Under the pieces are notes generated by a model, which searched no databases, had not been told where the DNA came from, and was given only the letters and a program-made list of their open reading frames with translations. The position numbers and the translations under genes were made by a program. This document shows, one piece after another, positions 3,370 to 53,942 of a DNA stretch of 64,000 bases (position 1 is its first letter; every line of letters starts with the position of its first letter). Source of the DNA: Elusimicrobiales bacterium (GTDB taxonomy: Bacteria > Elusimicrobiota > Elusimicrobia > Elusimicrobiales > UBA9959); NCBI GenBank assembly GCA_023701245.1, contig JAMPXK010000006.1, positions 3,152 to 67,151 of the forward strand, read 5' to 3'.

Positions 3370-3503
3370 GCGGGTGGCGAGGGGGTGCCTTCAGAAGGCC
3401 CTCACGGAGGCCCGAGCTTGCGCAGCGCGAGGGCCGAGTGAGGAGGGGCGGGCACGGTGTGTCCCGACCCCGTGCCTGAGGAAGGCACCCCCTCGCCACC
3501 CGC
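3370..3503. repeat. Type-1 nested-hairpin intergenic element, copy A
   Basis: Perfect 23-bp inverted arms (3370-3392 gcgggtggcgagggggtgccttc / 3481-3503) enclose a core shared with copies at 9896-10023 and 53788-53942. Confidence 0.9.
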
Positions 3504-6318: not shown

Positions 6319-8630
6319 TAAAGCGCCTCGAACTGGAAGATTTCGGCAAGTTCCGCAAAACCTCCCTGGTCTTCGGGCCTTTCACGCTGGTGACCGGCCC
6401 CAACGAGGCAGGCAAGACCACCGTTTTCGACGCGCTCTTCGACGCGCTTTGCGCCGGGTCCAAGCACGAAGGGCGGCCGCTCTGGAAGAACATGGCCGCC
6501 CGTTACGGGGCCATCCGCCGGTCCTCCGTCGTCTGGGAGGACGGTTTCGCTCCGCTGCAATTCGGCGACAACGAGTTCCTTGAGATCTTCGCTATCCGCG
6601 GCGGGGAACTTTCCGTAAAGCACCCCGAGAATAAAGGGGCGTCCTCCTGGGCGGAAGCGGCGGAGAACGCGCTGCTTAATTCCGGGCTCAACCCGGCCCG
6701 GCTGGCCGCCGGTCTCAGGGACAAGGCGGAAAGCGCGCGCAAAGGTTCCATCCAGGCCAGGCTGCACCGTTTGAAAGAGGCCATAACGGACAAGGGGCCC
6801 ATGATAGCGGCGCTCCGGTCGGAGCGCGACGCCGTGCTGGCCGGAGCCCAAACCGCCGCCGGGCTCGCGGCCGAGCGGGAGCGCCGCGCCGCCGCCCTGG
6901 AATTGAAAAATTCCGAACTGGCGCAGTTGGGCGCTAAGGTGGAAGAACTCTCCTCCGCGGCCCGCCTGGCCGCCGCCATAGAGGGCATAAATACGCTGCG
7001 GGACCTGAAGGAAGCCAGGGAGGAGGCGGCCGCCCTGGCGGCCTACGCTTCCAGCGAGCTGCCGGCCTACCGGGCCTTGAAACATACCCAGTCCGAAATG
7101 GAGAAGGCAGAGGCTTCCGCGGCCGCGGCCCTGGCCGAAAAACGCTCCGCGCTCGACGCGGCGCAGAAGGCCGCCGCCGAACTTTCCGCTAAAGCCGGCC
7201 AGCTGCAGCCTCGCGGCGAAATGGCCCTGGTCCTGGCCGACAAACTGGCGGCTTTCGCGGCCGAGCCCGGCAAAGTCACCCGCGTGCTGAATACCCGGCT
7301 CCGTTTCGGCCTCTGGGCGGGCGGCCTGGCGCTTGCGGCGCTGGTGGCGTACTCGGGCGCCGGTGCCGTGGCCTACGCGGCCGCGGCCGCTATCCTGGGC
7401 GCGGCCGGCTGGGCCGGGTTCAAACTCGCTTTTACCCAGACCATGGTTCCCCGCGGTCCGGGTGAGGAAGCCGCTTTCCTGGCCGGCGTGGCCGCCACCT
7501 GGTCCACGGTCTGCGAGGCCCCCCTCCCTAAGCAGGGCGTGGAAGACGCCCGCAACTACCTGGCCCGGGCCAGGGCGGACCAGGAAGCCGCGGCCGAGGC
7601 CGCCGAGGCCAAGGTTTCCGAAGTGGAATTCCTGATAGCTTCGGCCAGTTCGGCGGAGGCCGACCTGGAGGACCGGGCGCGCAGGGCCCGCAAGGCGGCC
7701 GCCGAGGCCGACAAGTGGCTGAAGGCCCGCGCCTGCGCGACCGAGGACGAATACCAGGCGAAGCTGGCCGAGTATAAAGCCCGCGCGGCCCGCTGCGCCG
7801 ATATGGAACAGCGCCTGGCGGTGTTCCTGCGCCGCAACAATTGCTCCGCCGAGAAAGAGCTGAAGGATAAACTGCATACCGAGAAAGAATCCATAGAGCG
7901 GCGCGGGATCGGTCCCGAACAGGCGAACGGGCCCGAACTGGAACGCCTCAAGCACGCGCAGGCCCTGCTGGCGCAGGAAGTCAGGGAACTGGAAGCGGCG
8001 CTCAACAAGGTCGCTTCCGAACTTGAGACGGCCAAGGCCGTTTCCGGGGTGCGCCTCGGCGGCCTGCCGGAAAGAATAAACCTGGCCGAGACGGAACTGG
8101 AAGCGGAGAAGGCGGAACTGGCGGAACTGGAACTGCAGGCGCAGGCCTGCCTGCTCGCCGCCGGGGTTTTCGACCGCCTTGGCGAGAGCTCGCTGCTGGC
8201 TTTCGAGGAACTCGGCAAGGAAGTTTCCTCCGTGCTGCAGGCGGTGCTGCCGGCGGCAAGCGCTGAATTCAGGGTTTTTGAAGCGGCGGGAGCGGCGGTT
8301 ACGGACGCCACCGGCCTGCGCCGGCCCGTGCGGAACCTTTCTTCGGGCACGCGCGACCTTTTTATGCTGGCCGCGCGCCTGGCCATAGCCAGGCGCTCAC
8401 GCCTGGGCCAGGCCGGCCCCGCGCCGGCGCTGCTGCTGCTGGACGAACCTTTTTATACGCTGGACCAGGCGCGGACGCGCCTGGCACTGCTGCTGCTGGC
8501 CGCCTTCCACAAGAACACCGGCTGGCAGATCATAATCCTTACCAAGGACCCTGGCGTCGCCGCCGAAGCCGCCCGCCTGGACGGGGTCAAGGCGACGGAA
8601 GTGGCCCTCGAACCTCCCAAGCCGCTCTAA
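6315..8630 (+). CDS. SMC/Rad50-like AAA ATPase with membrane-spanning apex (YhaN/SbcE-like)
   Basis: Walker A GPNEAGKTT, signature LSSGTRD, Walker B LLLLDEP, and long Ala/Glu-rich coiled coils. Two hydrophobic helices sit mid-protein (LWAGGLALAALVAY...AAGWAGFKLAF) where Rad50 has its hook. Confidence 0.75.
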   Translation: MIKRLELEDFGKFRKTSLVFGPFTLVTGPNEAGKTTVFDALFDALCAGSKHEGRPLWKNMAARYGAIRRSSVVWEDGFAPLQFGDNEFLEIFAIRGGELSVKHPENKGASSWAEAAENALLNSGLNPARLAAGLRDKAESARKGSIQARLHRLKEAITDKGPMIAALRSERDAVLAGAQTAAGLAAERERRAAALELKNSELAQLGAKVEELSSAARLAAAIEGINTLRDLKEAREEAAALAAYASSELPAYRALKHTQSEMEKAEASAAAALAEKRSALDAAQKAAAELSAKAGQLQPRGEMALVLADKLAAFAAEPGKVTRVLNTRLRFGLWAGGLALAALVAYSGAGAVAYAAAAAILGAAGWAGFKLAFTQTMVPRGPGEEAAFLAGVAATWSTVCEAPLPKQGVEDARNYLARARADQEAAAEAAEAKVSEVEFLIASASSAEADLEDRARRARKAAAEADKWLKARACATEDEYQAKLAEYKARAARCADMEQRLAVFLRRNNCSAEKELKDKLHTEKESIERRGIGPEQANGPELERLKHAQALLAQEVRELEAALNKVASELETAKAVSGVRLGGLPERINLAETELEAEKAELAELELQAQACLLAAGVFDRLGESSLLAFEELGKEVSSVLQAVLPAASAEFRVFEAAGAAVTDATGLRRPVRNLSSGTRDLFMLAARLAIARRSRLGQAGPAPALLLLDEPFYTLDQARTRLALLLLAAFHKNTGWQIIILTKDPGVAAEAARLDGVKATEVALEPPKPL

Positions 8631-9877
8631 ACCGCCGCCCGCCGGGCCAGCCGGTAGGCGGCCAGGGCCTCCGGGAACGGCGACAAGACCCGCTCCAGCA
8701 CTCCCTTGCATTCCGAGATCGCGGTGCCGTAATTGGTTATGGGGATCCCGGCCGCCGCGGCCCGGCCCATGCGGTTGAGTATCTCCGCGCGGTTGAGCAT
8801 GCAGCCGCCGCACTGGATGGCCAGCTTGTAATCCCCCAGTCCGCCCGGCAGGTCGTGCCCGGCGAAAGTGTCTATCTTCAACTCCCCCCCGGCGGTTTCC
8901 TTAAGCCAGCGCGGCAGCTTTACTCGGCCGATGTCGTCCTCTATGGCATGGTGGCTGCAGGCTTCCAGGACGGCCACCCGGTCTCCGGGCCGCAGGCCGC
9001 GTATGGCGGCGGCCCCGGCGGCGTAGGCGGACAGGTCCCCTTTAAAACGGGCGAACAGGATGGAAAAAGTGGTGCAGGGCACGCCGGGCGGCGTGTGCTT
9101 GACCATGAAGTCCACCACCTGGGAATCGCAGACCACCAGCGCCGGCGGCTCTTTGAGGGCGTCCAGGGCCCGGAGGTATTCGTGCTCGCGGCAGACCAGC
9201 GGCAGGGCGCCGTGGTCCAGCAGGTCGCGCATGGCCTGGACCTGCGGCAATATTATGCGGCCCTTGGGGGCTTCTTTGTCTATGGGGATGATGAACACCG
9301 CGGTCTGGCCGGGTTTTACCAGGTCTCCCAGTATGACGGCCGGGGCGCCGGCCGGCGGCGCGCCGAGGCGCAGCAGGCGTTCTTTCACGGCGGCCACGGC
9401 GGCCTCACGGCGGGTCTTATCCACGGCGGAGCAGAGGATGGGGGCTATGCCGCGGCCGGCCAGGGCGGCGGAGAGTTCCGGGGCGGGCGCGGCGATATCG
9501 GTCTTGTTGACCAGGACGATAACGGGAATGCGCTTTTCGGCGGCGGCCGCCAGGATCTCCTCTTCGCAGTCGCCCCAGCCGGCGGGTTCGGCTACCAGCA
9601 GGGCCACGTCGGCGCGGTCGAAGATGCGGCGGGCGCGTTCTTTGCGGAGTTCGCCCAGGCGGCTGTTGTCGTCGAGGCCGGCGGTGTCGAGGAAGACCAC
9701 GGGACCGACGGGCAGGAGTTCCATGCTCTTCTCCACCACGTCGGTGGTGGTGCCGGGGACCGGCGAGGTAATGGCTACGTCCTGGCCGGCCAGCATATTG
9801 AGCACGCTGGACTTGCCGACGTTGGTGCGGCCGAAGATGGCGATCTGGAGTCTCATCGATTTAGGCGTGCTGTTCAT
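8627..9877 (-). CDS. hydF: [FeFe] hydrogenase maturase GTPase HydF
   Basis: G1 GRTNVGKSS, G3 DTAG, NKTD. C-terminal EACSHH...QCGGC cluster motif. Start moved to ATG 9877 (MNSTPKS, GGAAAGGA SD); the longer ORF reads through repeat copy B. Confidence 0.88.
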   Translation of the reverse strand: MNSTPKSMRLQIAIFGRTNVGKSSVLNMLAGQDVAITSPVPGTTTDVVEKSMELLPVGPVVFLDTAGLDDNSRLGELRKERARRIFDRADVALLVAEPAGWGDCEEEILAAAAEKRIPVIVLVNKTDIAAPAPELSAALAGRGIAPILCSAVDKTRREAAVAAVKERLLRLGAPPAGAPAVILGDLVKPGQTAVFIIPIDKEAPKGRIILPQVQAMRDLLDHGALPLVCREHEYLRALDALKEPPALVVCDSQVVDFMVKHTPPGVPCTTFSILFARFKGDLSAYAAGAAAIRGLRPGDRVAVLEACSHHAIEDDIGRVKLPRWLKETAGGELKIDTFAGHDLPGGLGDYKLAIQCGGCMLNRAEILNRMGRAAAAGIPITNYGTAISECKGVLERVLSPFPEALAAYRLARRAAV

Positions 9878-9895
9878 AGTAGTCCTTTCCTCGGG

Positions 9896-10023
9896 TCCGG
9901 CGGGGGTATGGGGTCTGAAGGCCCTCTCGGAGGCCGAGGCTTGCGTAAGCGACGAGGCCGAGTGAGGAGCGGCGCGAACGGTGTTCGCGACCGCGTGCCT
10001 GAGGACCCCATACCCCCGCCGGA
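9896..10023. repeat. Type-1 nested-hairpin intergenic element, copy B
   Basis: Perfect 20-bp arms (9896-9915 tccggcgggggtatggggtc / 10004-10023) around the conserved core. Lies between the hydE stop and the hydF start. Confidence 0.9.
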
Positions 10024-10029
10024 ACCCCT

Positions 10030-11022
10030 TTATGCCCGCTTCAAACTGTGGCCGAAACCTTCGGCGCGCTGCCGGCCCAGGGAGGCCAGCATGGCGTCCA
10101 CGCAGCCGGCGCACTGCTCCGGCTGTTCTCCGGTGCAGATCTTGCCGGGGTACAGGCTGTAGTCGGCGCGGTTCTCCATGGGGCTGATGTTGGGCATCAG
10201 CACGTTGGCGCCGCAGCCCAGGGCCTTCTGCCTCCCCCTGGGGTCCAGGGTGCCCATGGCGGTGGTGGCCGGGATATGGGTGTTCTTGGTGACGATGCGG
10301 GTCAGCGCCACCATGCGCAGGGCGGCGTCGAGCGTGCCGCAGTCGGCCCCGGCCATGGGGGTTTCGGGGCTGGCGATGAACGGGCCTATGCCCACCATGT
10401 CCAGGTCCAGCTTCTTGAAGAGGAGGATGTCGTCGGCCATGCTTTCCAGGCTCTGGCCGGGCAGGCCGGCCATTACGCCGGACCCTACCTGGAACCCGGC
10501 ATCCTTGAGGCGCGCCAGACAGGCGAAACGCCTGTCGTAATCCGAGTCCGGCTTGAGCATGCTGAAAAGGCGCCGGTCGGAGGTTTCGAAGCGCAGCAGG
10601 AAACGGTCGGCCCCGGCGGCGCGCAGCAGCCTGTACTCTTCGGCGGAGTACTCCCCTACGGAAAGGGTGATGGCCAGGCCGGTCTCGGTCTTTACTTTTT
10701 CCACTACGGCGGCCAGCTCCCTGGGCCCGTAATGGGGGTCTTCGCCGGACTGCATCACCACGGTTTGGTACTTCAGGCGGACGGCGGTGCGGGCGCAGTC
10801 CAGTATCTGCGCCGGGCTCAGGCGGTAGCGGCGCACTTTGGCGTTGCCGGCCCTTATGCCGCAGTAGTAGCAGCGGCGGCGGCAGTAGTTGGAGAACTCT
10901 ATGAGGCCGCGCAGGTGTACGCCGTCGCCTACCTGCTCGCGGCGCACCTTGTCCGCCAGGGCATAGAGATCCGCCGGATCGCTATCCGGGTTGAGGGCGG
11001 CGATGATCTCATTTTTGTTCAT
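10030..11022 (-). CDS. hydE: [FeFe] hydrogenase maturase HydE (radical SAM)
   Basis: 330-aa ORF. Radical-SAM CRRRCYYCGI (CX3CX2C), BioB-like fold signature, position between hydG and hydF. Confidence 0.88.
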   Translation of the reverse strand: MNKNEIIAALNPDSDPADLYALADKVRREQVGDGVHLRGLIEFSNYCRRRCYYCGIRAGNAKVRRYRLSPAQILDCARTAVRLKYQTVVMQSGEDPHYGPRELAAVVEKVKTETGLAITLSVGEYSAEEYRLLRAAGADRFLLRFETSDRRLFSMLKPDSDYDRRFACLARLKDAGFQVGSGVMAGLPGQSLESMADDILLFKKLDLDMVGIGPFIASPETPMAGADCGTLDAALRMVALTRIVTKNTHIPATTAMGTLDPRGRQKALGCGANVLMPNISPMENRADYSLYPGKICTGEQPEQCAGCVDAMLASLGRQRAEGFGHSLKRA

Positions 11023-11039
11023 ATTTGGCCCGGCCCGGG

Positions 11040-11067
11040 CCCCCCTTCCGCAAAGGGTTCGCGGGGG
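11040..11067. repeat. Partial type-2 element (shares 26 of 27 aligned nt with the 3' part of the 16386-16479 element)
   Basis: cccccc-ttccgcaaagggt-t-cgcggggg here versus ccccccc-ttccgcaaagggt-g-cgcgggg at about 16439-16466. Lies in the 70-nt hydG-hydE gap. Confidence 0.7.
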
Positions 11068-11092
11068 AGCGCCACTGACAGCCCGCTGTTAT

Positions 11093-12571
11093 TCAGAAGC
11101 ATAGGTCCCGCTCGCCGCCTTCTATCCTTTTGTAGTAGGTTTCCAAAAGCTTCAGGGTCTCCGGAGGGAAATGCGCTCCGCGGTCGCGGATCTCGTTGAT
11201 CTCGCGGCGGATCAGCGCTTCGCCTTTGGCCCTGGTGGCTTCGGAGGCGAAGTCGTCGAGCCATTCGCGGTAGGTGAGCACGGCGTTGAGCTTGCAGAAG
11301 CGGCTTTCATGCCCGCTCTTGAGCAGTTTCATGATGTGGTCGCCGGTGCGGCCGCAGCGGTAGCCGGAGGCGCAGAAGGAGGTGATGTGGCCCAGGTCGG
11401 CCAGCTCGCCTATCACCTCGTCGAGGGAGCGGGTGTCGCCCAGGATGAACTGCTGTTTCTCGGCTTCCTGCGCGCCGGCGCGCTCGGAGTAGGCGCCTAT
11501 GCCTATGCGGGTGCTGGCGTCGCGCTGGGTGCACATGCCTATGACCTCGCGGATGGTCTCCGGGCGCTCGCGGGCGGTGACTATCATGCCGGCGTAGGGG
11601 ACGGCCAGGCGCAGTACGGCCACCAGCTTCTTGAAATCGGCGTCGGAAACGTTGCGGAGGCTGGCCTCGGGCAGGCTGGTGCCGTCGGCGTTCTCCAGGC
11701 GCGGGAAAGAGATGGTATGCGGGCCGACGCCGAAGCGCGCTTCCAGTTCGCGCGCGTGCGCTACCAGGCCCAGCACTTCGAATTTCCAGTCGGGGTTGAG
11801 GCCGAAGAGGGCGCCCAGGGCCACGTCGTCTATGCCGGCGGCGAAGGCCCGGTGCATGACGTAGAGGCGCCAGCGGTAGTCGGCTTTGGGGGTGCCGCCG
11901 GGATGAAGTCTGGCGTAGAGCTCCCGGTCGTAGGTTTCCTGGAAGACCTGGTAGGTGCCGAGGCCGGCGGCCTTGAGCAGCTTCAGGTCCTCGACGTTCA
12001 TGGGGGCGGCGTTGACGTTGACGCGGCGTATCTGGCCGAAGCCCTTGCGGGTGGGCACTTTGACGGCGTAGATGGTCTTCATGGCCTCGGCTATGTACTG
12101 CGCGCCGGTGGCGGGATGTTCGCCGGTGACGAAGATGAGGCGCTTATGGCCTATGCGCCCGGCGAGGGCTTCGGCCTCGGACCGGATCTCTTCCATGGAG
12201 AGTTTGCGGCGCACGGCCCCGGCGTTGCCGGTGCGGAAGCCGCAGTAGAGGCAGTTGTTGACGCAGAAGTTGGAGGCGTAGAGCGGGGCGAAGGTGATGA
12301 CGCGGTTGTCGTAGACCTTGCGCTTGACATCGCGGGCGGCCTGGTAGATCTCTTCGAGCAGGCCGGGGTCGGTGACGGCCAGGAGCGCCGCGGCGTCTTC
12401 GGGCGGGAGGGCCTCGGAGACGGCGAGCGAACGGGCGAGGATCTCGCGGACGCGGTCGGCCGAAGGGGCCGGGGCGGCGAGCGCCGCTTTCAGCGCTTTA
12501 TCGTCTATGAAGTCTTTGCCGTCTTTGAGGTAGTCTGCGTAGGTGTCTGCGTTAACGGTCACGGTTTGCAT
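11093..12571 (-). CDS. hydG: [FeFe] hydrogenase maturase HydG (radical SAM tyrosine lyase)
   Basis: Radical-SAM CVNNCLYCGF, ThiH-like body, C-terminal Cys triad. Start moved to ATG 12571 (MQTVTVN, GGAGA SD); the longer ORF reads into repeat element F. Confidence 0.88.
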   Translation of the reverse strand: MQTVTVNADTYADYLKDGKDFIDDKALKAALAAPAPSADRVREILARSLAVSEALPPEDAAALLAVTDPGLLEEIYQAARDVKRKVYDNRVITFAPLYASNFCVNNCLYCGFRTGNAGAVRRKLSMEEIRSEAEALAGRIGHKRLIFVTGEHPATGAQYIAEAMKTIYAVKVPTRKGFGQIRRVNVNAAPMNVEDLKLLKAAGLGTYQVFQETYDRELYARLHPGGTPKADYRWRLYVMHRAFAAGIDDVALGALFGLNPDWKFEVLGLVAHARELEARFGVGPHTISFPRLENADGTSLPEASLRNVSDADFKKLVAVLRLAVPYAGMIVTARERPETIREVIGMCTQRDASTRIGIGAYSERAGAQEAEKQQFILGDTRSLDEVIGELADLGHITSFCASGYRCGRTGDHIMKLLKSGHESRFCKLNAVLTYREWLDDFASEATRAKGEALIRREINEIRDRGAHFPPETLKLLETYYKRIEGGERDLCF

Positions 12572-12597
12572 AAGGTCTCCTTGGTTCGGGGCCGCCA

Positions 12598-12698
12598 GGG
12601 TGTTACCCTGGGCCCCACACCCGGGGAACCGTTGCGCGGTTCCCCCGTCCCTTACGGGACGGGTCCCCCTCCCCAAGTGGGGCGTGCGGGTAACACCC
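12598..12698. repeat. Type-2 nested-hairpin intergenic element (copy F)
   Basis: Outer stems GGGTGTTACCC/GGGTAACACCC and GCCCCAC/GTGGGGC enclose hairpins GGGGAACC[gttgcgc]GGTTCCCC and CGTCCC[ttac]GGGACG. Confidence 0.85.
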
Positions 12699-12720
12699 CG
12701 CCGTCCCCTCCAAACAGCGC

Positions 12721-13896
12721 CTAGTGCACGGCTTCGGTTGCGACCGGCACCGGCGCGTCCTTGAGCGTCAGCTCGAAGGAGGTCCCTTCACCGTACTTGG
12801 ACTGCACTTTTACGTCGCCGCCGTAAAGCTTTACCACTTTCTTGAGTATGGACAGGCCGAGGCCGCTGCCGTCGATGTTGCGGGTGTGCTCGTTCTTCAT
12901 GCGCACGAATTCCCCGAACAGTTTGGCGAGCTCCTGCTCCGTCATGCCTATGCCGGTGTCCGAGCAGCGTATGGCTACGGCGCCGTCCTGGCGGGCCAGT
13001 TCGAGGACCGCCCGGCCGCCTTCGCGGTTGTACTTGACGGCGTTGGTCAGCAGGTTGGACAGGACCATGTCCACTTCGCCCGGGTCGGCCGTCATCAGCA
13101 GCTGCGCCGGGGCTTTGAGCTCCACCGTGACTTTTTTGGCTTCGGCCAGGGCGGCGATGTTCTCCAGTATGAGCCCGGCGGTCTTTACCAGGTCCACCTG
13201 TTCTATGGCGCGCCGTTTTTTGCCGGATTCCAGGCGGGTAAGGTCCAGCAGGTCCATGACGAGTTTTCTCATGCCGCCTATGCGGGTGACGCTGCGGTCC
13301 ACCATGGCGTCGTAGGCGGCCAGCTCGGGGCCTTTCAGGCGCTCTTTCATGAGGTGCATGTAGCCTTCCACCGCGGCCAGCGGGCTCTTGAGCTCGTGCG
13401 CGAGGACCGAGATGAATTCGAAACGCACCTGGCGCTTCTCGTCCTCCAGCTTTTTGGCCTTGCGCTGCAGGTAGACGCTGCGCGCGGCCTTGGAGATGGT
13501 GGCGCGGAGTTCTTCCGGAGTAAAGGGCTTGGCCAGGAAGTCGAAAGCCCCGCGCTTGGTGGCGGTGACCGCCACTTCCAGCGAGGCGAAGGCCGTTATC
13601 ATGATGGTCAGGAAATCCCCCGCCCCCGGGGCGGCTGCCAGCACGTCTATGCCGGTCATGTCCGGCAGTTTATAGTCCAGGAGCAGGATGTCCGGGCTCT
13701 TGGCTTTCAGCGCGGCCAGGGCTTCGTCGCCGGTGGAGGCGCTGCGCACGGCGAAGGTGACGGTCTCGCTGAAGTCGGGCAGGGGCACGCTGAAGCCTTC
13801 CAGGGAGCGTTCCGCCCCCGCGCGCATGCCGGCCTCGTCGTCGACGATGAGTACGTCCAGCTGGTGGACGGGCAGGGGGTCAGGCATGACGCTCAC
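12721..13896 (-). CDS. Hybrid response-regulator receiver / histidine kinase (REC-HisKA-HATPase_c)
   Basis: N-terminal REC (VLIVDDE...LLLDYKLPDMTG), H-box SVLAHELKSPL, and N/G boxes (LTNAVKYN, DTGIGM, GSGLGLS). No transmembrane or DNA-binding region. Confidence 0.85.
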   Translation of the reverse strand: MSVMPDPLPVHQLDVLIVDDEAGMRAGAERSLEGFSVPLPDFSETVTFAVRSASTGDEALAALKAKSPDILLLDYKLPDMTGIDVLAAAPGAGDFLTIMITAFASLEVAVTATKRGAFDFLAKPFTPEELRATISKAARSVYLQRKAKKLEDEKRQVRFEFISVLAHELKSPLAAVEGYMHLMKERLKGPELAAYDAMVDRSVTRIGGMRKLVMDLLDLTRLESGKKRRAIEQVDLVKTAGLILENIAALAEAKKVTVELKAPAQLLMTADPGEVDMVLSNLLTNAVKYNREGGRAVLELARQDGAVAIRCSDTGIGMTEQELAKLFGEFVRMKNEHTRNIDGSGLGLSILKKVVKLYGGDVKVQSKYGEGTSFELTLKDAPVPVATEAVH

Positions 13897-14290
13897 CCGC
13901 GCCCATAAGGCGCTTAAGTTCGCTCTTGAGCTGCTCGAAGCGCAGTTCCTTGTGGATTATGGCGTCGGCCTTTATCCAGGTCTTGGGGTCATGGGCCTTG
14001 TCGAAGTAGAAGCCGGTCTCCTTGGTGACCGAGGTCACGATGACCACCGGGATACTGGGGTCCATCTTCTTTATCTTGTGGCTCAGCACGAAGCCGGAAT
14101 CGGGGTTCTCCATCATCAGGTCCAGGACGGCGGCCTTGAAATTGCCGGGCCGGATGAGAGGCTCGGCCTCTTTCTGGGTGGAGGCGCTGACCACTTCGTA
14201 GTCTTCGCTTTCGAGGTAGATCTTCATCTGTTCCATCATATCCGGGTCGTCTTCCACTACCAGGATCTTTATTTTGTTCTTGTCGGTCAT
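13880..14290 (-). CDS. Single-domain response regulator (REC only)
   Basis: 136-aa ORF with ILVVEDD and AAVLDLMM receiver motifs and no output domain. Overlaps the downstream REC-HK gene by 17 nt. Confidence 0.85.
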   Translation of the reverse strand: MTDKNKIKILVVEDDPDMMEQMKIYLESEDYEVVSASTQKEAEPLIRPGNFKAAVLDLMMENPDSGFVLSHKIKKMDPSIPVVIVTSVTKETGFYFDKAHDPKTWIKADAIIHKELRFEQLKSELKRLMGAGERHA

Positions 14291-14314: not shown

Positions 14315-16348
14315 TCATTTGCCCGCGGTCTCCGCTTTCATCTTGATCGCCCCGGCGTCGCGCGCCACGCGGGGCAGTTTTACCGTAAAGGTGGTGCCCG
14401 TCGGGCCCTTGGCCGGGTCGGAGTTGCTCTCTACCGCGATGCTGCCGCGGTGCACTTTGATGATGCCGTAAGAGACCGCCAGCCCCAGGCCGGTCCCCTT
14501 GCCTATCTGCTTGGTGGTGAAGAAAGGCTCGAAGATCTTCTTGGCATTCTCCGGCTTTATGCCGCAGCCGGTGTCCGAAACGCTGAAGCAGACGCTTTCG
14601 CGCTCGGGGAAGGTGCGGATGGTGAGCGCGCCGGCGCCGCCCATGGCTTCCAGGGCGTTGGTCACCAGGTTGGTAAGCACCTGGATTATCTGGTCGGGGT
14701 CCATCTCGGCCTGCAGGTCCTCGCCGGAGCGGTCCACGGTCAGCTTCAGCGTGGCCGGGACCGACGCCGTCTTGAAATAGTTGTCGATGAGGCGTACCAG
14801 GCTGGTCTGGCGGAAGAACGGCTTGTTCTTGCGGGCGAAGTTGAGCAGCCCGCCCACGATCTTCTTGCAACGGTCGGCCTGCTCGGTTATCATCTTGGCG
14901 TCGGCGAAGACGCGGGTGTCCTTCTGGCACTGTTCGGCCAGCAGGTGGGCGTAGAGCAGCACCACGCCGAGCGGGTTGTTGAGCTCATGGGCCACTCCGG
15001 CGGCCAGCTGGCCCATGCTGGCGAGCTTTTCCGACTGCATCAGGGCCTGCTTGGTCTTGGCCAGCTGGTTGTAGGAGACCGTCAGTTCGTCGGCGGTGGT
15101 CTTGAGCCGGTCTATGGTGTAGGGGAGGCACATTTCGCTTTCGGCTATGCCGCGGATGATGGCCACGGCGTGCTCCACGCAGGTGGGGTAGCCGCAGGCG
15201 CCGCAGTTCAGTTCGTCCTCCGGCCTGGTCTTGCCCATCTTGGCCAGGACGGCCTTGAGCTCCTCGCCGGCCGGCAGTTTCATGCGCCGGTCCTCGGCTT
15301 CGAAGGAGGCGCCGTAGTTCAGGCCGCGGAAGCGGCGCACGCTCTCTTCCCAGTCGTTGAGGCGGATGCTGAAATAGCTTTTGCGGGCGTAGCGGCGCAG
15401 GGCGGCCTCGCGCGCGTGCTTGGAGGACTTTACGCTGATGCCGGGGCCCATGATGCAGCCGTTGCAGCAGAGCAGGTCTATGAAATCGGCGTCGATGTCT
15501 CCGTGCTCCATGTTCTTGAGCACTTCCGGGAAGTTCTCCAGCCCTTCCGAAGAGAGGAAGCGGCCGCTCAGCAGGTCCTCTTCGAGTTCGGCGGAGTTGA
15601 GCAGGCCGCCGCCCATGGGGTAGAGCACGCCCTTGGCGGGATGCGGCGGGTCGAACTGGGCGTCCAGGGCGCTGTTGCGGTCCACGCCGGCGTCCTTGAG
15701 GATGGTGCGCAGCTCCACGAAGGTTATGGATTCCGCTATGTCGGCCAGGTTGCGGGCGGTCTCTTCCTTCTTGGCCACGCACGGCCCGATGAAGACCACT
15801 TTTACTTCGGGACCGTACATGTCGTGTATGACCCGGGCCTCGGCCACCATGGGGGAGACTATGGGCGCGAGGCTGCCCACCAGGGCCGGGTGGTATTTTT
15901 CCACGAAGGAGACCACTGCGGGGCAGGCGGTGCTGATGAATTTTTTGCCGGGGTTCTCGTTGATGAGCTTGCGGTACTGCAGGGAGACCATGTCCGCGCC
16001 GAAGGCCACTTCGCAGACATGTTTGAAGCCGAGGGCCTTTAACATGCCGGCGAACCGCAGGGGGTCTATCCCGCCGAATTCAACGGGGAAACTTGGGGCC
16101 AGGGCGGCGGCGACGGGCGCGCCGCTCTTGAGGAGGGCTTTTACGGCGCGGATGGAGTCCAGGGTCTCTTTGGCGCCGCGGCTGCACATGAGCACGCAGT
16201 TGGCGCAGCCTATGCAGCGCTCCTTTATGACCTCGGCCTGGCCGCCGGAGATGCGGATGGCCTTGGCGGGGCAGCCGCGCACGCAGGTATAGCACGCCTT
16301 GCAGCGTTCTTTGATGGTCCTTACTAGTGGCTCGCTATCGGGTGTCAT
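14315..16348 (-). CDS. Sensory [FeFe]-hydrogenase-like protein fused to a histidine kinase
   Basis: Contains a 2x[4Fe-4S] ferredoxin motif. The H-cluster-domain motifs are altered: STACP, GPCVAKKEE, LLCCNGCIMGPG. A CX2CX4CX16C motif (CGACGYPTC...C) follows, then H-box VAHELNNPL and HATPase_c. Start set to ATG 16348 (MTPDSEP). Confidence 0.85.
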   Translation of the reverse strand: MTPDSEPLVRTIKERCKACYTCVRGCPAKAIRISGGQAEVIKERCIGCANCVLMCSRGAKETLDSIRAVKALLKSGAPVAAALAPSFPVEFGGIDPLRFAGMLKALGFKHVCEVAFGADMVSLQYRKLINENPGKKFISTACPAVVSFVEKYHPALVGSLAPIVSPMVAEARVIHDMYGPEVKVVFIGPCVAKKEETARNLADIAESITFVELRTILKDAGVDRNSALDAQFDPPHPAKGVLYPMGGGLLNSAELEEDLLSGRFLSSEGLENFPEVLKNMEHGDIDADFIDLLCCNGCIMGPGISVKSSKHAREAALRRYARKSYFSIRLNDWEESVRRFRGLNYGASFEAEDRRMKLPAGEELKAVLAKMGKTRPEDELNCGACGYPTCVEHAVAIIRGIAESEMCLPYTIDRLKTTADELTVSYNQLAKTKQALMQSEKLASMGQLAAGVAHELNNPLGVVLLYAHLLAEQCQKDTRVFADAKMITEQADRCKKIVGGLLNFARKNKPFFRQTSLVRLIDNYFKTASVPATLKLTVDRSGEDLQAEMDPDQIIQVLTNLVTNALEAMGGAGALTIRTFPERESVCFSVSDTGCGIKPENAKKIFEPFFTTKQIGKGTGLGLAVSYGIIKVHRGSIAVESNSDPAKGPTGTTFTVKLPRVARDAGAIKMKAETAGK

Positions 16349-16385
16349 AATCGTTGTCTGACTTAAGTCCTGAGCTATTAGTGGC

Positions 16386-16479
16386 GCCCGGGATATTGCC
16401 CCACGCACCCTGGAAGATGGAAACCCTTGCGTCGGTTTCCCCCCCTTCCGCAAAGGGTGCGCGGGGCAATATCCCGGGC
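16386..16479. repeat. Type-2 nested-hairpin intergenic element (copy D)
   Basis: 25-bp arms with one mismatch (16386-16410 / 16455-16479) enclose GGAAACC[cttgcgtc]GGTTTCC and CCCTT[ccgca]AAGGG hairpins. Lies between the hydA stop and the sensor-kinase start. Confidence 0.88.
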
Positions 16480-16492
16480 ACCCTTCTGCTGT

Positions 16493-18217
16493 CTACGTTA
16501 GGTCCGCCGCCTTGCGCCTGGCGTACTTAGTGTGCAGGAGGTGGTGGCTCTTCTCGCCGAGGGGCTTGCCGAGGAAGTCCTTGTAGAGGGCCTGCACGGC
16601 CTTGTTGGCGTGCGAGGTGCGGATCTTCTCGGAGGCGTCGATATTGTACAGGGCGCGCATGCGCTCGGCTACGGCGGCCTTGTTGCGGGCGAAGGGCTGG
16701 CCGCCGCCGTTGATGCAGCCGCCGGGGCAGGTCATGATCTCTATGAAGTGGAGGTCCTTCCTGCCGTTCTTGATCTCTTCCAGCAGTTTGCGGGCGTTGC
16801 CCAGGCCGCTGACGGCCGCTACCCCGGCTTCCAGGGCGCCGATCTTGAGGCGGGCTTCCTTGATGCCGTTCTGGCCGCGCACGGCTTCCACCTTGAGGGT
16901 GCCCAGTTCCTTGCCGGTGAGCAGGTAATGGGCGGTGCGCAGGGCGGCTTCCATGACGCCGCCGGAGGCGCCGAAGATCTTGCCGGCGGTGCTGCGGTCC
17001 CCGAAGGGCATATCCGGCTCTTCGGGCTGCAGGGTCTTAAGGTCTATGCCGTAAATGCGCAGCAGCTGGGCCAGTTCGCGCGTGGTCACCACCGCGTCGA
17101 TGTCGGGGGTGCCGTCGCGGCCCATCTCGGGGCGGGTCACTTCGAATTTCTTGGCGGTGCAGGGCATGACCGAGACGCTGTACATCCTGGCCGGGTCGAG
17201 CCCCTGCTTTTTGGCGTAGTAGGTCTTGATCATGGCTCCCAGCATCTGCTGCGGGCTCTTGCAGGTGGAGAGGTTGGGCAGCAGTTCGGGATAGAAGGTC
17301 TCCACGAACTTTATCCACCCGGGCGAGCAGGAGGTGAACATGGGCAGCGGGCCGCCGGTCTTTATGCGGTGCGCCAGTTCGCTGGCCTCCTCCATGATGG
17401 TCAGGTCGGCCGCGAAGGAGGTGTCGAAGACGGCCTTGAAGCCCATCTTGCGGAAAGCCGCGGTCATGACGCCGTTGACGTCGGTGCCGGCGGGCAGGCC
17501 GAACTCCTCGGCGAGGGACACGGAGATGGACGGGGCGTGCTGCACCACCACGTGCAGTTTCTTGTCGGAGAGGGCTTCCATGACCGCCTGGATGTCGCTC
17601 TTCTCCATCAGGGCGCCGGTGGGGCAGACGTTGATGCACTGCCCGCAGTTGACGCAGGAGGAGACGTTGAGGCTGGAGTCGAAAGCGCAGCCGATGGAGG
17701 TGTCCGAGCCGCGCTTTACGAAGTCTATGCAGGAGACGCCCTGCACCTCCTCGCAGACGCGCACGCACTTGCCGCAGAGAATGCACTTGTCGGGGTCGCG
17801 GGAGATGGAGGGGCTGGAAATATCCAGGGGCTTCTTCTTCTTGGCCACGGGGAAGCGGCGGCCGGTCACGCCGTAGTCGCGGCTGAGGCGGTTAAGCTCG
17901 CAGGTGGGCTGCTTGGCGCAGTAGAGGCAGTCGTCGGGATGAGAACCCAGCAGCAGTTCCACCACGGTCTTGCGGGCGTTTATGACGCGCGGGCTGTTGG
18001 TGAGGATCTTCATCCCCTCGGCCGCCGGGAAAGAGCAGCTGGGCAGGAGGTTGCCCTGGCCTTCCGCTTCTACCACGCAGATGCGGCAGGCGCCGGAGGG
18101 CAGCATGCCTTCCATGTGGCAGAGGGTGGGCACATGCACGCCTTCGCGGCGCAGCACGGTGAGCAGGGTTTCCCCCGCCTGGGCTTCTACGGTCTTTCCG
18201 TTCACGGTGAGTTTCAT
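16493..18217 (-). CDS. hydA: [FeFe] hydrogenase catalytic subunit (HydA/HndD type, multi-cluster N-terminus)
   Basis: N-terminal 2Fe-2S, HX3CX2CX5C and 2x[4Fe-4S] motifs. H-cluster motifs MPCTAKKFE and EIMTCPGGCINGGGQP are canonical, but motif 1 reads TSCSPGW. Confidence 0.88.
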   Translation of the reverse strand: MKLTVNGKTVEAQAGETLLTVLRREGVHVPTLCHMEGMLPSGACRICVVEAEGQGNLLPSCSFPAAEGMKILTNSPRVINARKTVVELLLGSHPDDCLYCAKQPTCELNRLSRDYGVTGRRFPVAKKKKPLDISSPSISRDPDKCILCGKCVRVCEEVQGVSCIDFVKRGSDTSIGCAFDSSLNVSSCVNCGQCINVCPTGALMEKSDIQAVMEALSDKKLHVVVQHAPSISVSLAEEFGLPAGTDVNGVMTAAFRKMGFKAVFDTSFAADLTIMEEASELAHRIKTGGPLPMFTSCSPGWIKFVETFYPELLPNLSTCKSPQQMLGAMIKTYYAKKQGLDPARMYSVSVMPCTAKKFEVTRPEMGRDGTPDIDAVVTTRELAQLLRIYGIDLKTLQPEEPDMPFGDRSTAGKIFGASGGVMEAALRTAHYLLTGKELGTLKVEAVRGQNGIKEARLKIGALEAGVAAVSGLGNARKLLEEIKNGRKDLHFIEIMTCPGGCINGGGQPFARNKAAVAERMRALYNIDASEKIRTSHANKAVQALYKDFLGKPLGEKSHHLLHTKYARRKAADLT

Positions 18218-53787: not shown

Positions 53788-53942
53788 GGGCCGGCATGGA
53801 TATGGCTCGGTCGGGCCTTCGCGCAGGCCTGAGCTTGCGTAAGCGCGAAGGCCGGGTGGAGCGAAGCGACACCGCAGTGTGAGGAGCGGCGGCCACGGTG
53901 TGGCCGACCGCGTGCCCGACCGAGCCATATCCATGCCGGCCC
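53788..53942. repeat. Type-1 nested-hairpin intergenic element, copy C
   Basis: Perfect 29-bp arms (53788-53816 gggccggcatggatatggctcggtcgggc / 53914-53942) around the conserved core, with an extra insert of about 24 nt. Confidence 0.9.

Follow-up and report, generated by a model that had tools for sequence, protein, structure and literature searches.

The 64,000-nt stretch analysed here, hereafter the window, comes from contig JAMPXK010000006.1 of the Elusimicrobiales assembly GCA_023701245.1 and carries a hydrogenase (hyd) gene cluster in which a long nested hairpin, element A, separates hydA from the gene of a sensor histidine kinase. We find that this hairpin belongs to a real, well-defined new repeat family and is not a hydrogenase-specific regulatory element. 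The best-supported description is a previously undescribed family of units of 100-150 nt, here called type 2, of the general REP/BIME/ERIC/BOX kind: repeats of this kind are known, and are new in the Elusimicrobia, a phylum for which we found no repeats described in the literature. The family is spread over many genomes, is polymorphic at individual sites, decays in place and is constrained in its structure.

Element A begins 10 nt past the hydA stop codon and ends 34 nt ahead of the kinase start codon. A sequence-only reading of the window had pointed out a hairpin between these two genes, and the Pfam tables and translations from which we identified the genes of the hyd cluster bear out the names it gave them. 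In an inverted-repeat search of the window, element A is among the four strongest hits, with arms at 16383-16411 and 16454-16482 that are 29 nt each, 93% complementary and 42 nt apart; the 25-bp arms with one mismatch described earlier fall within them. That mismatch is A.C on the plus strand and G.U on the minus, gene-sense strand. The minus-sense RNA, whose folding had been proposed as a check, reaches −85.5 kcal/mol (z −10.2), and the plus-sense RNA −75.3 kcal/mol (z −8.9), the minus-sense fold being the better one because its mismatch is G.U rather than A.C. None of 200 shuffles folds as stably on either strand. The functional polarity of element A is the minus strand of the window, and its parts are the following:

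16383 to 16482, minus strand: element A, a complete type-2 member of the GAAACC subfamily (the A subfamily), without the variable P2 hairpin.
16454 to 16482, minus strand: 5' arm, in element sense, of the outer stem P1, from the inverted repeat and the fold.
16440 to 16454, minus strand: J1/2, the conserved purine tract, TTTGCGGAAGGGGGG in sense, from invariant or near-invariant columns in alignments A3 and A4.
16419 to 16440, minus strand: P3, the conserved hairpin GGAAACC-GACGCAAG-GGTTTCC, from the inverted repeat and the subfamily consensus.
16411 to 16418, minus strand: the linker J3/1, ATCTTCCA in sense, diagnostic of the GAAACC subfamily.
16383 to 16411, minus strand: 3' arm, in element sense, of P1, from the inverted repeat, the fold and covariation.

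Of the two small hairpins that the sequence-only reading had placed inside the arms, GGAAACC/GGTTTCC (16419-16440) is present and is the conserved P3, with a compensatory change between G-C and A-U from one subfamily to the other (columns 92/109 of the A-subfamily alignment A4: A-U in 18 copies, G-C in 3). The other, CCCTT/AAGGG, exists as sequence but is not a conserved feature of the family. It overlaps the end of the outer stem within the invariant purine tract, and the minimum-energy fold instead pairs GGAAG (16445-16449) with CTTCC (16412-16416); covariation is absent either way. A helix between the purine tract and J3/1 is valid only in subfamilies with a CTTCC linker and not with CTGCAGTCC, and we rejected it as a universal feature. 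No terminator-like site was found at 16383-16482 on either strand, and the sequence past the stem reads GCCACUAAUAGC in sense; since no U tract follows the hairpin, element A is not a classical intrinsic terminator.

Pattern searches recover hundreds of type-2 copies across many Elusimicrobia genomes, which confirms the suspicion that the unit is itself repeated and disposes of the possibility that no further copies exist or that a duplication is confined to this cluster. Read on the minus strand, the family plan consists of a variable but paired outer stem, the purine tract TTTG(G/C)GGAAGGGGGG, an optional variable hairpin and a conserved GG(G/A)AACC-loop-GGTT(C/T)CC hairpin. The outer stem P1, of 25-30 bp, is conserved in pairing only, and sequence conservation is found in the apical part of the unit, which comprises the purine tract, the optional P2, P3 and the linker. 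In the main family the purine tract is (G/T)TTGGGGA(A/G)GGGGG and P3 is GGGAACC-GCGCAAC-GGTTCCC; P2 varies in sequence and length, and the linker after P3 varies by subfamily, reading C, TGC, CTGCAGTCC, CCTCTGCCCA or CATCTTCCA. By inspection, about one-fifth of the copies carry a 3' tail, CCCCGACTnnGCATCTCGCGG. The consensus of the GAAACC subfamily is TTTGCGGAAGGGGGG - P2 - GGAAACC-GACGCAAG-GGTTTCC - ATCTTCCA, and element A equals this consensus of the metagenome copies except for the absent P2; it is, in other words, the subfamily consensus with P2 deleted. It also carries every part of the family definition: a purine tract TTTG(G/C)GGA(A/G)GGGGG, followed by GG(G/A)AACC, a loop of 7 or 8 nt and GGTT(C/T)CC, inside a stem of at least 25 bp.

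The range of the family was followed with two 19-mers and a covariance model. The 19-mer GGAACCGCGCAACGGTTCC, taken from a second copy in the window (element B, below), occurs in at least 119 stretches of a one-genome-per-species collection, nearly all of them from about 25 Elusimicrobia species represented by metagenome-assembled genomes (MAGs), with minimum counts per genome of at least 22, at least 14 and at least 13. Six matches outside the Elusimicrobia were examined; they lack the flanking architecture and look like chance. The A-specific 19-mer ACCCTTTGCGGAAGGGGGG, a variant of the purine tract, is matched exactly in 36 metagenome stretches. The covariance model R1, built from 62 copies with element A left out, nevertheless finds element A (16374-16490) with 61.4 bits and an E value of 7e-10 on the minus strand, and with 32.5 bits on the plus strand. 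Rfam (Rfam 15) gives no gathering-level match in the window or in seven loci with the composite units described below, and in E-value mode the sole match to the element is a chance one to a microRNA hairpin model, with 26 bits against a gathering score of 53. Neither core occurs in viral contigs, and a phage origin was rejected.

Many MAGs have type-2 copies cut off at contig ends (loci L011, L016, L023, L026, L030, L066, L075, L088, L093, L096, L101 and L102; relatives' loci are numbered in this way throughout), as is expected because repeats break assemblies. Within the unit, several insertions are seen. An AT-rich insert of about 110 nt sits at the P2 tip of copies in L139, L142, L153, L154, L157, L162 and L165; it has short inverted ends of its own, CACTGCGGATTT...AAATCCACAGTG, and resembles a third small element nested in the repeat. 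Directly after the purine tract, an optional module can occur that consists of a variable hairpin followed by C(C/T)GCAGTGC (L002 9850-9890, L017/L058 at about 150-200, L121 at about 690-730) and echoes the CTGCAGTCC linker found after P3. The copy at L169 11656-11794 has an insert within the P3 loop itself. We also considered UUCG or GNRA tetraloops in P2 as an RNA signature and rejected them by inspection, because the loops do not fit cleanly.

The pairing of the outer stem is maintained while its sequence changes. Among the 27 pairs that RNAalifold yields for the 62 copies, 15 have compensatory changes; 30 copies have U-A at one stem position, for example, where 14 have G-C and 7 have C-G. 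In alignment A4, 92.4% of the cells are in standard pairs compared with 81% after shuffling, and 22 of the 29 P1 pairs have changed on both sides in a compensatory manner; none of 500 shuffles reaches these values. When the partner is shifted by one column, pairing drops to about 55%. The stem is variable, as the sequence-only reading had said in calling it copy-specific, but it is not unique to each copy: a stem nearly identical to that of element A occurs at an unrelated site, L166. We rejected this copy as an orthologue of element A, since neither hydA nor the kinase gene lies nearby. Its near-identical stem at another place indicates that the stem is variable but inherited and that the whole hairpin is the copied unit.

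The stem mismatches have a strand polarity. When the 5' arm was aligned to the reverse complement of the 3' arm with both transition mismatches scored alike, G.T-type mismatches numbered 141 and A.C-type mismatches 57. After removal of mismatches with a shared local context, 108 G.T and 52 A.C remained (p 1e-5, a value that, like all p-values for the strand bias, is indicative only, because the copies are related and the events are not independent). More G.T than A.C is present in 54 copies and the reverse in 16. Copies antisense to their operon show the bias at 34:10 and sense copies at 44:26; because it is present in both alike, the excess of G.T over A.C of about 2:1 tracks the polarity of the element and not host transcription. 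Two sites of tandem A.G/G.A mismatches are conserved in the outer stem across subfamilies as well, with 168 such mismatches in 94 copies; examples are GGAGGGG...CCCCGAC at the stem base and CGAGC...GAGCG.

All analysed copies are intergenic (94 of 94 in the main family and 31 of 31 in the A subfamily). Main-family copies are co-oriented with both neighbouring genes in 29 cases (+E+), antisense to both in 27 (-E-), between convergent genes in 21 and between divergent genes in 6, so that type-2 copies are rarer between divergent genes. The A subfamily leans to the sense orientation, 18 against 7. Gene orientation was taken from a codon log-odds caller trained on the called genes of three relatives; in the window, it recovered hydA, the kinase gene, hydG and hydE, missed hydF and clipped the kinase start.

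In the window, type-2 copies lie at three places in the hyd cluster, and hairpins of another type, type 1, described below, also occur. The genes and the two further type-2 copies are:

16493 to 18217, minus strand: hydA (Pfam/translation, as for all genes listed here).
14315 to 16348, minus strand: [FeFe]-hydrogenase-domain histidine kinase.
13880 to 14290, minus strand: response regulator.
12721 to 13896, minus strand: response-regulator/kinase.
12588 to 12708, minus strand: element B, a full type-2 copy belonging to the main subfamily, its P2 being CCCGTCCCGTAAGGGACGGG, from the inverted repeat, in the gap between the response-regulator/kinase gene and hydG.
11093 to 12571, minus strand: hydG.
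11040 to 11084, minus strand: fragment C, the 5' arm and purine tract of a type-2 copy whose 3' half is missing, from the 27-mer match, in the hydG-hydE gap.
10030 to 11022, minus strand: hydE.
8627 to 9877, minus strand: hydF.

R1 matches element B with 94.6 bits (E 3e-16) over 12581-12714, this copy having belonged to the seed alignment, and fragment C weakly, with 17 bits (E 0.2) over 10960-11090. Fragment C had been recognised earlier from a 27-mer shared with element A, and this recurrence before hydE is confirmed: the 27-mer is found at two places in the window, 11040-11066 and 16440-16466, and at no other, with 0.00 occurrences expected in shuffles. A local duplication does not account for it. 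The single difference between fragment C and element A in the shared segment falls on a covarying pair that is dimorphic in the family (A-U in 12 copies, C-G in 10), and the 5' arm of fragment C, GGGCTGTCAGTGGCGCTCCCCCGCGAACCC, resembles GGGGTGTCAGGGATATTCCCCTGCGAACCC, the 5' arm of the full element at the same hydG-hydE site of L167. From this resemblance of sequence, we read fragment C as a decayed orthologue now without its 3' half, rather than as a copy made locally from element A. All three type-2 copies of the window are in gene sense; since the family occurs in both orientations, this placement reflects no rule.

The kinase gene at 14315-16348 has hydCBA on one side and the maturase genes hydG, hydE and hydF on the other, with two response-regulator genes after it. 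Its product is a hydrogenase-like sensor histidine kinase, in which a domain like the [FeFe]-hydrogenase large subunit is fused to HisKA/HATPase_c, and has 7876 homologue matches at E<=1e-50 in many phyla. The kinase is 83-92% identical to its closest relatives, which belong to uncultured Elusimicrobia of groundwater, GWC2_63_65, GWA2_64_40 and GWC2_64_44 among them. The exact hydA protein is recorded only on one assembly contig from a public sequencing run.

Four intergenic sites of the hyd cluster were compared in eight lineages that share the gene order and whose kinase proteins are 83-92% identical:

hydA-kinase site: type 2 in the window, L002 and L167; a type-1-like element in L169; empty in L168, L005, L008 and L170 (36-71 nt).
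kinase-hydG site: type 2 in the window, L002, L168, L169 and L008; no other content; empty in L167, L005 and L170 (19-20 nt).
hydG-hydE site: type 2 as a full copy in L167 and as a fragment in the window; a 268-nt type-1-like insert in L170 and an unrelated 77 nt in L168; empty in L002, L005, L008 and L169 (6-7 nt).
hydE-hydF site: type 2 in L167, L169 and L008, and internally deleted in L002; type 1 in the window; empty in L168, L005 and L170.

Close lineages differ by gain, loss and internal deletion of type-2 copies at shared intergenic sites. The hydG-hydE gap, for instance, is 70 nt in the window, whereas four of its seven relatives (L002, L005, L008 and L169) have 6-7 nt there. Neither L005 nor L170 has a type-2 copy at any of the four sites: the hyd gaps of L005 are just 6-37 nt, and L170 carries its type-1-like insert at hydG-hydE. 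Copies at the same site in different lineages may belong to different subfamilies. At the kinase-hydG site, the orthologous copies of the window (element B) and L002 share the same outer stem and have different P2 hairpins, and because the matches to each P2 lie in other copies of that same genome, exchange between copies is suggested. At L002 16262-16338, an internal deletion has left the purine tract immediately next to the terminal CCCCGAC; this deletion apparently occurred between two CCCCG direct repeats and represents one route by which elements decay.

Taken together, these data make it likely, in our judgement, that element A is a copy of a non-autonomous structured intergenic repeat family of 100-150 nt that has spread in a high-GC clade of uncultured Elusimicrobia, probably via a strand-specific single-stranded intermediate, and that any effects on the hyd mRNA are incidental. 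The unit would be copied in trans by an enzyme, and the intermediate would be folded from a single strand, which in the window is the minus strand. A constant polarity of this folded strand is suggested because G.T mismatches are about twice as frequent as A.C whichever way the host genes are transcribed. IS200/IS605 and REP/RAYT elements use a single-stranded DNA route that would fit. In this scheme, the recognition module would be the conserved apical junction, with the stem needed merely as a stem. In the hyd transcript, the element would form a very stable hairpin just past hydA, where it might act as a barrier to 3' exonucleases or as a target for a double-strand-specific RNase and so uncouple the hydCBA message from the downstream sensor genes, a local effect that is most likely incidental. 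The cluster does not depend on element A for its function, since the element is missing from relatives whose genes are arranged in the same order.

Several observations weigh against this account of a mobile repeat. A tblastn search with E. coli RayT of the window and the loci (about 1 Mb) gave nothing better than E ~1, although this is a weak test that covers a small part of each genome and that a distant Y1 enzyme could escape. Convincing target-site duplications were not found either: the direct repeats at the stem boundaries are 0-2 nt in 88 of 94 copies, and the ends are not sharply defined, with just a recurrent GGA...GAC at the stem base. The GA that recurs on both sides of the stem may be a tandem G.A motif rather than a duplication. 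Among the available sites, no insertion is recent enough for a base-by-base comparison of filled and empty states. The near-invariant purine tract and P3 loop, the strand-specific wobble bias and the variable-length P2 would also fit a functional RNA, and the A subfamily is sense-leaning (18:7). Finally, gene orientation rests on our in-house codon-usage caller, and the copies are not independent samples. A 117-aa open reading frame between two inverted type-2 copies (L091 4691-5044) was also inspected as a candidate transposase of the RAYT kind; it is low in GC, strongly hydrophobic and not transposase-like.

The main rival of the repeat account is a multi-copy structured RNA that is functional in itself, such as a self-cleaving ribozyme, a protein-sponge RNA or a guide-like RNA, with each copy a gene. 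The extreme conservation of the junction and the P3 loop and the covarying stems would suit such an RNA, as would the two conserved tandem G.A motifs in the stem, the behaviour of P2, which resembles a variable expansion segment and accepts inserts of about 110 nt, and the intrinsic terminators that follow some copies in sense. The G.U-type bias, which tracks the polarity of the element and not host transcription, points the same way, but an equal tolerance of G.T is expected of folded single-stranded DNA. Set against these points, no conserved promoter-like sequence lies upstream and the flanks are unrelated between copies; many copies lie within operons at 5-30 nt from neighbouring genes, and about half of these run antisense to the operon; truncation and internal deletion are frequent; and neither single nor composite units match Rfam. 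We therefore consider a functional RNA of this kind unlikely. A broader proposal, that the family represents a new polarity-specific class of element, either a functional structured RNA (a ribozyme, or a guide-like RNA with its specificity in the stem) or a self-copying folded-strand mobile unit, strikes us as rather doubtful. Such a mobile unit would use a mechanism new to science, for example hairpin-templated resynthesis of the 3' arm, which would explain how the stems stay fully paired while their sequence drifts.

The palindromic units could also be structural or protein-binding sites in DNA, comparable to BIME/REP sites with gyrase, IHF or Pol I, that contribute to chromosome organisation or supercoiling and spread by gene conversion. 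They are intergenic and orientation-independent and are enriched between convergent and co-directional genes, orthologous copies swap P2 modules as conversion would predict, and neither a transposase (in the same RayT search) nor a target duplication was found. Gene conversion, however, cannot fill empty sites, and occupancy is patchy among close relatives with different subfamilies at one site; a double-stranded site, moreover, gives no reason for perfect complementarity of the arms or for a strand-specific wobble bias. This leaves DNA sites spread by conversion quite unlikely. Still less can be said for a dedicated cis-regulatory RNA of the hydrogenase cluster, an attenuator, stabiliser or processing site that sets the ratio of hydCBA to the sensor and maturase genes. 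Elements A and B, fragment C and the type-1 copy do lie exactly at the boundaries of the functional modules of the cluster, all three type-2 copies are in gene sense, a very stable hairpin starts 10 nt after the hydA stop codon, and the hydA-kinase site is filled in L002 and L167 too. Yet L005 and L170 have the same cluster in the same gene order without a type-2 copy at these sites, one site can hold different subfamilies in different lineages, the family stands beside unrelated genes in both orientations, and the hairpin has neither a U tract nor an Rfam match. The empty orthologous sites and the genome-wide spread led us to reject a hyd-specific riboswitch or attenuator, an idea largely refuted by this distribution and very unlikely to hold in any of these forms.

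Comparison with characterized systems places type 2 among the intergenic palindromes without identifying it with any one of them. ERIC/IRU sequences are enterobacterial intergenic imperfect palindromes of ~127 bp, with longer variants that arise by internal insertion, and their RNA hairpins can alter the stability of flanking mRNA. Type 2 resembles them in size, in its long imperfect hairpin, in its strictly extragenic position, often within operon transcripts, in the use of both orientations and in its patchy presence among related species. It has no sequence similarity to them and belongs to another phylum; ERIC is conserved throughout, whereas type 2 is conserved only at the apical junction and, unlike ERIC/IRU, exhibits compensated free change in the stem, a strand-specific wobble bias and fusion with a second repeat type. 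REPs are units of 20-40 nt with a conserved 5' tetranucleotide of the GTAG type and a stem that is itself the conserved sequence; they form BIMEs and REPINs, the latter mobilised by RAYT (a Y1 HUH enzyme whose gene typically has the repeats on either side), are recognised as hairpins on one DNA strand and act as exonuclease barriers in mRNA. Like REP/BIME, type 2 forms high-copy intergenic palindromes that are rarer in divergent promoter regions and mosaic with other motifs, and recognition of the hairpin on one strand, as in REP/RAYT, would explain its strand-specific tolerance of G.T. It nonetheless falls outside the definition of a REP or REPIN, with a length of 100-150 nt, a conserved part that is apical, a variable stem and no GTAG at its foot. 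BOX elements of Streptococcus pneumoniae are built of the modules boxA, a variable number of boxB and boxC, and RIME elements are found in rhizobia. Interchangeable modules, stable secondary structure, intergenic position and the absence of an identified transposase are shared with type 2, but the modules of BOX differ in sequence and organisation, and no long covarying outer stem surrounds them.

The Correia elements of Neisseria and other miniature inverted-repeat transposable elements (MITEs) have a length of 100-150 bp, conserved terminal inverted repeats and a target duplication (TA for Correia), and their RNA duplexes are cut by RNase III. Type 2 is likewise non-autonomous and 100-150 bp long, and its arms would fold into long RNA duplexes within operon transcripts; it differs from MITEs in that the arms vary between copies and no target-site duplication was found. 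The only arm parts that recur between copies are the outermost GGAGGGG..CCCCGAC and the innermost few base pairs. The miniature elements derived from IS200/IS605 (PATEs) move as single strands of one polarity and are recognised by their hairpins, with a subterminal hairpin at each end and a specific tetra- or pentanucleotide target. Type 2 shares their lack of terminal inverted repeats and target duplication, and polarity-specific recognition would be compatible with the excess of G.T; in type 2, however, a single hairpin spans the unit, no target motif is defined, and no TnpA was identified in the transposase search described above (tblastn with RayT, about 1 Mb). Integron attC sites, with conserved R''/L'' and L'/R' end boxes, a variable centre, one orientation relative to the cassettes and an adjacent integrase, show the opposite arrangement: in type 2, the centre is conserved and the arms vary, and copies occur in both orientations, scattered among housekeeping genes.

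For annotation, the three hairpins of the hyd cluster should be recorded as copies of a genome-wide repeat and not as hydrogenase-specific regulators, and the same applies to the type-1 hairpins. For genomics, the family breaks assemblies and marks lineage-specific insertions, and a covariance model would aid binning, scaffolding and strain typing. Its hundreds of copies, in which a stem of 25-30 bp drifts yet stays paired around an apical junction that is near-invariant across species, and in which one strand alone tolerates wobble pairs irrespective of host transcription, amount to a natural experiment. Discovery of a copying machinery or an RNA function would extend the known repeat systems to a phylum from which we found none described. 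Locally, the hairpin of −85 kcal/mol placed 10 nt past hydA may influence how strongly the bifurcating hydrogenase is expressed relative to its sensor kinase.

Three copies of the type-1 module lie in the window:

9893 to 10026, minus strand: in the hydE-hydF gap, with a type-2-like outer stem and a different core.
3370 to 3503, minus strand: in a divergent intergenic region.
53788 to 53942, minus strand: with an extra inner insert.

On the minus strand, the type-1 core consists of a hairpin with the tip CACACCGTG and a hairpin GCTTACGCAAGC and is unrelated to the type-2 core. The likeness between the two types that the sequence-only reading had described holds for the nested build and the related outer stem but not for the cores, and the single superfamily for which it had suggested a test fails on the unrelated cores. 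A CTTGCGT loop shared by both types is likewise true of the A-subfamily loop but not of the main-family loop, GCGCAAC. R1 matches the type-1 copies weakly, with 21-22 bits, via the stem only. The three type-1 copies share the core GTGAGGAGnGGCGnnnACGGTGT (plus strand), their inner and outer stems covary, and the core is present in at least 10 relatives' loci; type 1 is thus a second dispersed family.

Several relatives carry composites in which a type-1 core immediately precedes a type-2 unit of the same polarity. The composites are 283-426 nt long and usually terminate in the 3' tail CCCCGACTnnGCATCTCGCGG. Because the two types have related outer stems and form fused composites, yet have unrelated cores, they are modules within a single mosaic system and do not constitute a sequence superfamily. 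No long autonomous version was found: the 5' end and the 3' tail of the composite are never more than 600 nt apart, and all composites fall within 283-426 nt. At unrelated loci of one genome, composites of about 340 nt are about 90-94% identical. The order within a composite is type-1 core, linker, type-2 unit and tail CCCCGACTnnGCATCTCGCGG, with a defined 5' end at GGCGGCCTACCGC, and such units are seen at L013 5784-6100 (minus strand), L022 3180-3502, L031 864-1182, L084, L085, L113, L114, L133, L144 and L145. In some copies (L085, L113), the first ~28 nt of the composite, GCGCTCGTGGTTGGCGGCCTACCGCG, occur in tandem two or three times.

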